Source: Candidatus Nomurabacteria bacterium (GTDB lineage: Bacteria; Patescibacteriota; Minisyncoccia; Phycocordibacterales; UBA918). From it: 64,000 bases of DNA. The notes under the pieces were generated by a model, which was given only the letters and a program-made list of their open reading frames with translations, ran no database searches and was not told the DNA's origin. Shown piece by piece: positions 608 through 2,320 of this stretch (within the stretch, counting starts at the first letter, position 1; each line of letters begins with the position of its first letter). The position numbers were made by a program, and so were the translations under genes. The stretch is from assembly GCA_020631995.1 (NCBI GenBank), contig JACKGJ010000002.1, forward strand, positions 154,773-218,772. Reading direction: 5' to 3'.

Positions 608-2320
608 TTAGGTTGGTAGTCTTTTCTTTAAGACATCTATTTCCTTGAGTTTCGCTTCTGCATCCTCAGCTCTACCTTCGGTCTCAGCTAATAACATCGC
701 TTCTTTTAATAAAAGAATTTTTTCTTTAGTGAAAAGCTCGTTCAACTGTTGGAGCTTGTGCTCCCAATCCTCTCTGACTGTACGTTGGCGAGATTCACTT
801 ATATAACTCTCAAGTGTAAAGAAAAGTTGGCTTTTAACATCGTTGGATAATGACTCACGTACCTCACTAGGAGTTTGTCCGACAATTTCAATAAAGCGTT
901 CAGATAGCATTTGTCCCTCACTTGGTTCCAAAAGTTCTTCAATTACTGATAAAAAGGCAAGAACATTTTCTTTTCGGCTGGAGGTTGGCATCACTTTTTC
1001 AACTATTTGTTCGGCTTCTCGGATTCTGTCTTTGGCTCGTTCCTTTTCCTTGTTTGCCTCAAGTCGTGCGACATCGAGGCGTACTGACTCTGCATTTATG
1101 TCTAATCTTTCTGCAATTAGATTAGCAAAGTGGTCTCTGTCGATATGGCTTTCAATTAGTAGGAGATATGGTAACACTTCATCGCTGACTCGCATCTTAA
1201 ATTTCCTTTCGTCAGGCGACTCCTCTTTTAGTAGATTAAGAAGAAATTCGATTACGTGGGTTGCTTCCTTGATATCTTTCTTCAAAAGATTTGGGTCTTC
1301 GGCTACTAGATCGGCTGGATCTTTTCCGCCATGAAGTCTCGCCACCTTGAGGTCAATTCCTCGGGCGAGCATAAGTTCGGCTGCGCGCTTCACTGCTGCT
1401 ACTCCAGCCCGGTCAGCGTCGAGCGCTAGCACCACACGATTAGAGAGGCGCTGCAAGAGTGATGTATGTTCAGGAGTGAGAGCGGTGCCAGAGACAGCCA
1501 CGGCGTTTTTGTACCCTGCCTGGTGTGATAACACCACATCAAACTGTCCTTCGACAATTAGCGAGAAGTCCAGTTTATGAATTCCATGCTTTGCTTTGTC
1601 GTATCCGAACAATGCTTCAGATTTATTAAAGAGCATTGTCTCTGGAGAGTTCACATACTTTGGTGCTTCACTATCTTTACTCAACACACGTCCAGAGAAA
1701 CCAATCACTCTGCCACTACTGTCCATTATCGGAAACATTATACGATCACGAAATACATCATATGGTTGTTTACCTTGGTCAGCCTGCTTCACCAGTCCGG
1801 CCTGAAGCATCAAGCTGTCTGCATATCCTTTGGCAGCTAAATGCTCTTTGAGTTGACGCCAGTCATTAGGAGCGTACCCAATCCGCCACTTAGAAATAGT
1901 ATCGTCGTGCACTTCGCGCTTTTTTAAGTACTCTAGTGCGTCACCAGATTGCACCAAGGTCATTTCAAAAAACTTGGTAGCGTCATCAAGTATTTGGTAG
2001 AGAGTGTCGCGTAAATCACGCTTCTTTGGGTCTTCTGGGACTAGTTCCACTCCGGCTTTATCAGCCAAAATTTTCAAGGCACCTTTGAAGTCCACGCCTT
2101 CCATTTTCTCTACGAAAGTGAACATGTCACCGCCTTGTGACGAAGAGAAGCAGTAGTACATACCACGGTCGGGGGACACGTAGAAAGACGGTGTTTTCTC
2201 GGCAGTGAAGGGAGACTTGCCCTTAAAGTTTTTCCCAGCTTTGTGTAGCTCGACGTAGGGCGATATTACATCGATTATTGATAGCTTTTCTTTTATTCTC
2301 TGCACCGAATCTGTAGCCAT
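608..2320 (-). CDS. dnaG: DNA primase DnaG
   Basis: Track ORF 608..2344. It has a primase/TOPRIM core ([17 protein letters not shown]) and an N-terminal zinc-ribbon-like segment, [12 protein letters not shown]...[15 protein letters not shown]. The track start is a TTG at 2344. I prefer the ATG at 2320, which is preceded by AGAGG. Confidence 0.9.
   Translation of the reverse strand: [570 protein letters not shown]

Follow-up and report, generated by a model that had tools for sequence, protein, structure and literature searches.

The DNA primase gene (dnaG) in a 64,000-nucleotide stretch of a Candidatus Nomurabacteria genome (GenBank assembly GCA_020631995.1, contig JACKGJ010000002.1, positions 154,773 to 218,772 of the forward strand; hereafter the window) encodes a protein that matches DnaG in profile score, predicted fold, catalytic residues and gene neighborhood but not in the ligand set of its N-terminal zinc ribbon, in which three of the four zinc ligands have been replaced. 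The zinc-less ribbon is real and conserved and occurs widely in Kaiserbacteria and related Paceibacteria; judged from the selection acting on it, its predicted fold and the intact catalytic core beside it, it appears to be functional. The best explanation as a whole, with a probability of about 0.72, is that this gene specifies the organism's replicative DnaG primase and that its ribbon retains the fold of the primase zinc-binding domain (ZBD) and still performs its function but no longer binds zinc.

Ligand residues of the zinc ribbon

The ZBD (residues 1-95; positions 2036..2320, minus strand), here without a zinc site, was delimited by its match to PF01807, by an AlphaFold2 (AF2) model and by the lowest rate of nonsynonymous substitution (dN) among the three regions of the protein. 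In a HMMER alignment without gaps, S36 (TCT, 2213..2215), T39 (ACT, 2204..2206), C57 (TGC, 2150..2152) and S60 (TCG, 2141..2143), all read from the minus strand, stand opposite the Cys, His, Cys and Cys of the Aquifex primase 2AU3, and S59 (2144-2146, minus strand) takes the place of the Gly of the CxGC motif. An earlier note on this DNA had likewise read the ligands as Ser, Thr, a kept Cys and Ser, and had argued that intact EKTPSF and GGDMFTF signatures spoke against misalignment; the alignment bears out the replacements, and both signatures are indeed conserved. The coordinates given there, 2141-2215, correctly span S36 to S60, but the 26-residue string quoted with them (residues 36-61) ends one codon later, at 2138. 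The note also allowed that alternative Cys or His residues nearby might restore a four-ligand site. No such site can be assembled in this protein, because residues 1-100 hold just one Cys, C57, and one His, H26; the ZBDs of three zinc-less relatives are without any Cys or His.

Distribution of the zinc-less ribbon

Ligand states were scored for proteins summed over all searches (n=505), consisting of 199 zinc-less sequences from Patescibacteria, 186 Cys-His-Cys-Cys (CHCC) sequences and 120 sequences from Hyphomicrobiaceae, and no intermediate ligand set occurs among these 505. Position 36 is Ser in 199/199 zinc-less Patescibacteria and 120/120 Hyphomicrobiaceae proteins; position 60 is Ser or Thr and position 59 is Ser or Ala in every zinc-less form (in Patescibacteria, Ala once); position 57 in zinc-less Patescibacteria is Cys in 196/199 and Asp in 3/199; and position 39 is variable, with T, S, N, K, A or V among zinc-less forms. 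An alignment such as the earlier note had proposed places the loss across the lineage: the pattern S-[T/S/V]-C-[S/T] is present in 119/119 closest homologues covering the site, which are 55-96% identical and come from independent assemblies. In species-representative genomes, S-T-C-S/T is found at loci L001-L014 and L019 and the sister pattern S-N-C-S/T at L016-L018, L020 and L022; the nearest loci that retain CHCC are L015 (Tayloriibacteriota) and L021. The nearest 150 representatives of 50%-identity clusters include 114 with CHCC and 34 that are zinc-less (34/148); in three of the zinc-less representatives (S-K-D-S, S-S-D-S) even the remaining Cys is gone. Across bacteria the variant is as unusual as had been supposed, since only 1 of 58 retrieved loci from outside Patescibacteria is without CHCC.

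Sequencing error at these codons, which had been named as a possible source of the pattern, is excluded because the residues recur in all of the closest homologues. An artefact of sequencing, assembly or reading frame has a negligible likelihood in any case: the open reading frame (ORF) is intact, with a ribosome-binding site and ends homologous to those of its relatives, and the same residues are specified by differing synonymous codons in hundreds of independent assemblies.

Several CHCC ribbons of the Kaiserbacteria-related group (L081, L085, L087; P0121, P0332, P0342) have an extra Cys before the first ligand (KCKCPFH, KACCPFH) and a Tyr in place of Phe after the third (CYGC). The protein P0240 (1240 amino acids) matches the window's DnaG in three stretches, with a CHCC primase module from approximately residue 700, and could be either a fusion or a gene-calling error.

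Selection, predicted fold and catalytic residues

The proportion of synonymous differences (pS) in the ZBD is 0.81-0.99, which is saturated, in all compared pairs of genes except L002 versus L003 (0.64), and dN in the ZBD is 0.03-0.20, lower than that seen for the RNA polymerase domain (RPD) in every pair, by approximately 3-5 fold in most, and roughly 2-16 fold below that of the C-terminal domain. Constraint on the protein is thus strongest in its zinc-less domain, where purifying selection is very strong. The high conservation of the ZBD does not come from recent transfer, because its synonymous sites are saturated; a recent horizontal sweep of the ribbon was rejected because this saturation is seen even between the closest genomes.

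Structure prediction, which the earlier note had recommended, was run on residues 1-110 with a multiple sequence alignment of 91 zinc-less sequences only, and the AF2 model is predicted to have a ribbon fold like that of 1D0Q. Its predicted local distance difference test score (pLDDT) is 77-87 over the ribbon, and its best match in the PDB is 1d0q_A, the ZBD of B. stearothermophilus (E 2.7e-9; template modeling [TM] scores 0.78/0.84; root-mean-square deviation 1.0 Å over 90 columns). The full-length AF2 model has a mean pLDDT of 88.5 and a helical C-terminal domain, and its RPD superposes on DnaG RPDs with TM scores of 0.8-0.9. In an alignment (A3) that spans both ligand states and both phyla, the acidic residues of the EGxxD, DxD and DPxD motifs (E257, D261, D301, D303, D334, D337) are invariant, as are K221-Y222-x-N224-S225-P226 of the KYxNSPET motif and the arginines R191 and R193 of FRDR. 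With its catalytic residues invariant, the protein is not a primase in decay.

The last acidic motif of the Toprim domain (1309-1320, residues 334-337) reads DPAD, compared with DPD[DET] in Aquifex, Bacillus, E. coli and Hyphomicrobiaceae. Whatever their zinc state, Paceibacteria conserve Ala336 to at least 90%, and an invariant Asp follows it directly; the metal-binding Asp of this motif may have shifted by one position.

An independent origin in Hyphomicrobiaceae

The one exception among the 58 loci from outside Patescibacteria, L065, reads S-K-C-T. Its RPD is closest to the DnaG of Brucellaceae (54% identity), its dnaG lies in a carA-yqeY-dnaG context, and its ZBD, once the ligand columns are masked, resembles proteobacterial CHCC domains most closely. 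The zinc-less ribbon thus arose independently in Hyphomicrobiaceae. The 120 best homologues of the L065 protein all (120/120) read GLSPFKxEKTPSFFVNDQKGFYHCFA[ST]GEHGD (S-K-C-S/T), and their sources, where named, are Hyphomicrobiaceae, Hyphomicrobium and Filomicrobium (H. zavarzinii, Ca. Filomicrobium marinum) or, less specifically, Alphaproteobacteria or Pseudomonadota. These proteins differ from their CHCC relatives at positions 36, 39, 59 and 60 (perhaps 62) only. Both lineages have reached the same solution, in which the first ligand becomes Ser, the third is kept, the fourth becomes Ser or Thr, and Gly59 becomes a small residue. Some of the zinc-less Hyphomicrobiaceae are cultured, so the variant appears to be compatible with normal growth.

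Interleaving of zinc-binding and zinc-free ribbons in Paceibacteria

The distribution of zinc and non-zinc ribbons in Paceibacteria does not follow the species phylogeny. A neighbor-joining (NJ) tree of the C-terminal part of RpoC (554 columns, 100 bootstraps) nests the CHCC locus L081 within zinc-less Kaiserbacteria (99% bootstrap support) and makes the CHCC locus L083 the sister of the S-N-C-S/T clade (100%); the CHCC dnaG of each occupies the same rpoC-dnaG-rpoD slot as the zinc-less gene. The neighbors of the CHCC protein P0121 are 72 CHCC and 46 zinc-less proteins (n=118), and a tree of DnaG without the ZBD intersperses the two states and includes well-supported mixed pairs. A single clean loss at the base of a clade was rejected because the RpoC tree and the tree of closer DnaG relatives nest CHCC forms among zinc-less forms; the deep NJ tree of RPDs gave no resolution.

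The block that differs between the two forms is the ribbon core, residues 26-73 (2102..2245, minus strand), recognized by state-linked positions, by the divergence of L085 from L087 and by counts of state changes on trees. Mixed-state pairs of proteins whose RPDs are less than 10% different differ by 21% in the ZBD with ligand columns masked, versus 5% for same-state pairs whose RPDs are equally close. The closest mixed pair is L085 (SSCT) and L087 (CHCC), with RpoB 96%, RpoC 95% and RpoD 92% identical; in the N-terminal half of their DnaG, excess divergence is found in approximately residues 25-73, where the windows of codons starting at 31 and 46 are 60% identical, compared with 83-90% in the flanks. 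Fourteen positions track the ligand state, all of them in residues 26-73, including conservative ones such as M/I73. By Fitch parsimony the state changes twice on the tree of the ribbon, 14 times on that of the RPD, 11 times on that of the C-terminal domain and 13 times on that of the ZBD flanks, and approximately 49 times with random labels. The codons for Ser36 and Ser59 are TCN in nearly all zinc-less genes of Patescibacteria; at position 59, TCN is two steps from the ancestral GGN, whereas AGY would be one step.

These observations suggest, with moderate confidence, that the zinc-free ribbon originated once in Paceibacteria and that lineages have since exchanged the ribbon core repeatedly. 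A bolder form of the proposal, in which residues 26-73 would be an ancient pair of interchangeable cassettes, a zinc-binding and a zinc-free one, swapped often between close lineages by short-tract recombination, is tentative and falls somewhat short of an even chance. What holds back exchange as the explanation is that all trees are NJ only and that synonymous sites are saturated: between L085 and L087, pS is already 0.56-0.7 in the background and 0.75-0.80 in the ribbon, and since synonymous sites are so near saturation, recombination is inseparable at the DNA level from repeated switching with compensation. The competing account, which is regarded as rather unlikely, is that the interleaving reflects many independent losses in situ, each with the same compensatory substitutions and no exchange of cassettes. 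Convergence on S-x-C-S/T with a small residue for Gly59 demonstrably happened once, in Hyphomicrobiaceae, and synonymous divergence (dS) is too saturated to reveal a recombination tract. However, the Hyphomicrobiaceae achieved this with the four or five substitutions noted above, whereas Paceibacteria have ten further state-tracking positions, some of them conservative and far from the site (M/I73); the two-step TCN rather than one-step AGY encodes S59 in nearly all zinc-less Patescibacteria genes; and neither the lack of intermediates among the 505 proteins nor the two state changes on the ribbon tree, against 11-14 for other parts of the gene, would be expected of many separate losses. No second ribbon or alternative copy, as a switch by gene conversion would use, was found in the window or at loci L081, L083, L085 and L087. 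If the ribbon core does exist as two exchangeable cassettes, the metal dependence of primase would be a switchable trait, and the preference for initiation sites might switch too, because Tyr/His56, beside the third ligand, changes with the cassette.

Proposed function of the zinc-free domain and alternative explanations

The ZBD and polymerase domain of primases recognize the initiation trinucleotide and support primer synthesis, and T7 primase without its zinc domain makes only random dinucleotides (PMC2910064; PMC6163395). As in canonical primases, the zinc-free ribbon domain would act with the RPD in template recognition and primer initiation. The two knuckle turns of the ribbon would be held not by a metal but by hydrogen bonds from side chains to the backbone, the capping residues being the small polar Ser36, Cys/Asp57 and Ser/Thr60, with Gly59 relaxed to Ser or Ala. 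Capping of this kind is suggested by the invariant Ser of the first knuckle, the Cys or Asp that starts the second and the Ser or Thr at the fourth position in two lineages, and it would explain why two unrelated lineages came to the same solution. In related Paceibacteria, two old alleles of the ribbon core (residues 26-73) would then have been exchanged repeatedly. The likely benefit, which is speculation, would be that an essential enzyme of low copy number is freed from dependence on zinc supply or from thiol oxidation.

Some points weigh against a ribbon that retains its fold and function without zinc. The absence of zinc is itself inferred from the residues at the ligand positions, and retention of the fold without zinc is a prediction only. 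The five AF2 models of the ZBD alone vary widely, from a pLDDT of 78 down to 44, and metals are not modeled by AlphaFold; for these reasons the model of the fold is taken as supportive only.

Two other explanations, each considered improbable, would leave the protein with a metal or relieve it of its role. A metal could still be bound through an unconventional set of ligands, such as C57 and H26 with carboxylates or water, or the oxygens of Ser and Thr: C57 is present in 196/199 zinc-less Patescibacteria proteins and all Hyphomicrobiaceae, H26 is at least 90% conserved in the clade of the window's DnaG, and H56, C57, E62 and H63 lie close together in Hyphomicrobiaceae. However, close relatives in either state can have Q, T, A, S or K at position 26, so that H26 is not specific to the zinc-less form; residue 57 is Asp in three relatives, and three ZBDs are devoid of both Cys and His; H56 and H63 are also found in CHCC alphaproteobacteria; and the hydroxyls of Ser and Thr are poor zinc ligands. 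The other explanation supposes that priming is done by a further, canonical primase encoded elsewhere in the genome (a CHCC DnaG or one of the archaeo-eukaryotic type) and that the copy described here is specialized or decaying. The window is 64 kb of the genome, and the Twinkle protein of animals provides a precedent, with the loss of its zinc cysteines as well as of its primase activity (PMC5737085). Against such a history, the catalytic residues of the RPD are invariant, unlike those of Twinkle, the ZBD is under the strongest constraint in the protein, the gene takes the rpoC-dnaG-rpoD slot that CHCC genes fill in sister genomes, and no other primase or ribbon copy was found in the 64-kb window or the related loci examined.

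The dnaG gene and its neighborhood

The dnaG coding sequence (608..2320, minus strand; 570 amino acids plus stop) was identified by its ORF, TIGR01391, Pfam, primases in the PDB and the full-length AF2 model. The enclosing minus-strand ORF extends from 608 to 2344, and the most likely start is the ATG at 2320, because GAGG lies 7-10 nucleotides upstream and the homologues begin with MATDSV or MASDSV. TIGR01391 (bacterial DnaG) matches residues 3-406 with 407.2 bits versus a cut-off of 283.6, and the closest solved relative is 2AU3 (E 1.6e-60). The Pfam domains are in the order Zn_ribbon_DnaG PF01807 (residues 3-94; 98.3 bits versus a cut-off of 24.9), DNAG_N (121-244) and Toprim (254-339), the latter two belonging to the RPD (residues 110-420; 1061..1993, minus strand), in which the catalytic residues are present according to Pfam, alignment A3 and structural matches. 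The helical C-terminal domain (residues 446-570; 611..985, minus strand) is presumed to bind DnaB; it is the fastest-evolving of the three regions, its AF2 model is all helical with pLDDT 77-94, and comparison with Pfam and with known structures yielded no family or fold match for it. A weak match to DnaB_bind PF10410 (18.4 bits versus a cut-off of 20.6) lies upstream of this domain at residues 375-409.

The rpoB and rpoC genes are located upstream of dnaG and rpoD downstream, and the order rpoC-dnaG-rpoD is common to the window and loci L081, L083, L085 and L087. The closest genomes are metagenome-assembled genomes labeled Kaiserbacteria, Paceibacterota or "Patescibacteria group", of which L001 (UBA6201) has a DnaG with 93% identity. 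Translation of the rpoC ORF (2989..6681, minus strand) has both zinc sites with their cysteines intact, so there is no general avoidance of zinc by this genome. Translation of rpoD, whose start is 59 nucleotides downstream of dnaG, covers its 5' part (1..549, minus strand) before the gene runs off the window; ahead of region 1.1, it has an N-terminal extension of approximately 80 residues rich in Lys and Ala (MVAKKKIAPKKVKKATKKVAKRAVKKVAKKAPKK...) that resembles histone H1 or AKKA repeats. Between rpoC and dnaG, and opposite to dnaG, the plus strand contains a hydrophobic ORF of 78 amino acids (2416-2652); the same spot is occupied in the same opposite orientation by a 238-amino acid ORF in L081 and a 164-amino acid ORF in L083, of unrelated lengths, and by none in L085 and L087.

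Other genes of the window

No other primase was found within the 64-kb window. A minus-strand ORF of 298 amino acids (18479-19375) is an unusual fusion of NusB (residues 7-136) and a NUDIX hydrolase (166-281). An SMC_N-type protein of 780 amino acids (14658-17000, minus strand), with the halves of its head domain spanning residues 33-765, is far shorter than a typical bacterial SMC, and the 5' end of its gene is overlapped by an ORF of 156 amino acids (16915-17385). Ribosomal protein S16 (11742-12242, minus strand) is predicted to have 166 amino acids, with the S16 domain at residues 22-79 only and a long C-terminal extension; S16 of L085 and L087 has 133-141 amino acids. Two minus-strand ORFs of 1157 and 707 amino acids (46051-49524 and 26110-28233, respectively) have no Pfam match at E<=1e-5.

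Significance

An essential enzyme that is described as a zinc protein appears, from its sequence in these lineages, to work without zinc, counter to the textbook rule for bacterial primases. Primases that are naturally free of zinc would be a ready-made test of whether the role of the metal is purely structural, and of its bearing on template specificity and on sensitivity to oxidants or chelators. Material for such tests is available in cultured Hyphomicrobium and Filomicrobium and in the near-identical pair P0360 (SSCT) and P0342 (CHCC), which differ only in the ribbon core. The variant is also relevant to proposals for antibiotics aimed at the primase ZBD.

Comparison with known systems

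Searches of the full-text literature found no prior account of DnaG without zinc ligands in Patescibacteria, Hyphomicrobium or elsewhere; their coverage is incomplete, and an earlier mention is possible. The canonical DnaG ZBD (the CHC2 zinc ribbon of 1D0Q, 2AU3 and PF01807) is of the same family as the domain in the window, in the same position in the protein, with the same predicted fold, the same EKTPSF and GGD signatures and an intact RPD downstream, but it has Cys-His-Cys-Cys where this domain has S-T-C-S, together with Ser59 for the Gly of CxGC. TIGR00646, which represents MG010-type proteins of Mycoplasma, matches the window's DnaG weakly (33 bits versus a cut-off of 260). The MG010-type proteins are short paralogues of DnaG that consist of Toprim only, without the N-terminal domain; they are alike in being DnaG relatives without a functional zinc finger, and different in that the protein described here keeps the whole domain. 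The Cys-His-Cys-Cys ligands are otherwise highly conserved in the bacterial primase ZBD (PMC6163395). In the primase-like region of metazoan Twinkle, zinc cysteines, RPD catalytic residues and primase activity have all been lost (PMC5737085). Twinkle, of the T7 gp4 family, is thus another primase module in which a whole lineage has lost its zinc-coordinating cysteines, but the catalytic residues of the window's DnaG are invariant and its ribbon is the most conserved region.

A parallel in principle is a zinc form and a cysteine-less form of one information-processing protein with the two states interleaved. Makarova et al. in 2001 reportedly described ribosomal proteins of the zinc-ribbon type in zinc (C+) and non-zinc (C-) forms. 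For ribosomal protein S4, the two forms are distributed in a way that conflicts with the species phylogeny, which has been put down to horizontal exchange (Chen et al. 2009, PMC3087516). In DnaG, as in the C- forms, replacement of the ligands goes with a domain that is otherwise conserved and under purifying selection, and both forms occur in related genomes with a distribution incongruent with phylogeny. No case of both forms in one genome, or of a Zur-regulated paralogue, was seen within the window and loci L081, L083, L085 and L087, a scope that is not genome-wide. Unlike the ribosomal proteins, DnaG is an enzyme of DNA replication present in low copy, so that economy of zinc is a weak motive for its change; and unlike S4, the unit exchanged appears to be a segment of approximately 48 codons inside the gene rather than the whole gene. 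Interleaved zinc and zinc-free primases would carry the C+/C- pattern of ribosomal proteins over into the replication machinery; they would also demonstrate exchange within a gene usually regarded as vertically inherited.

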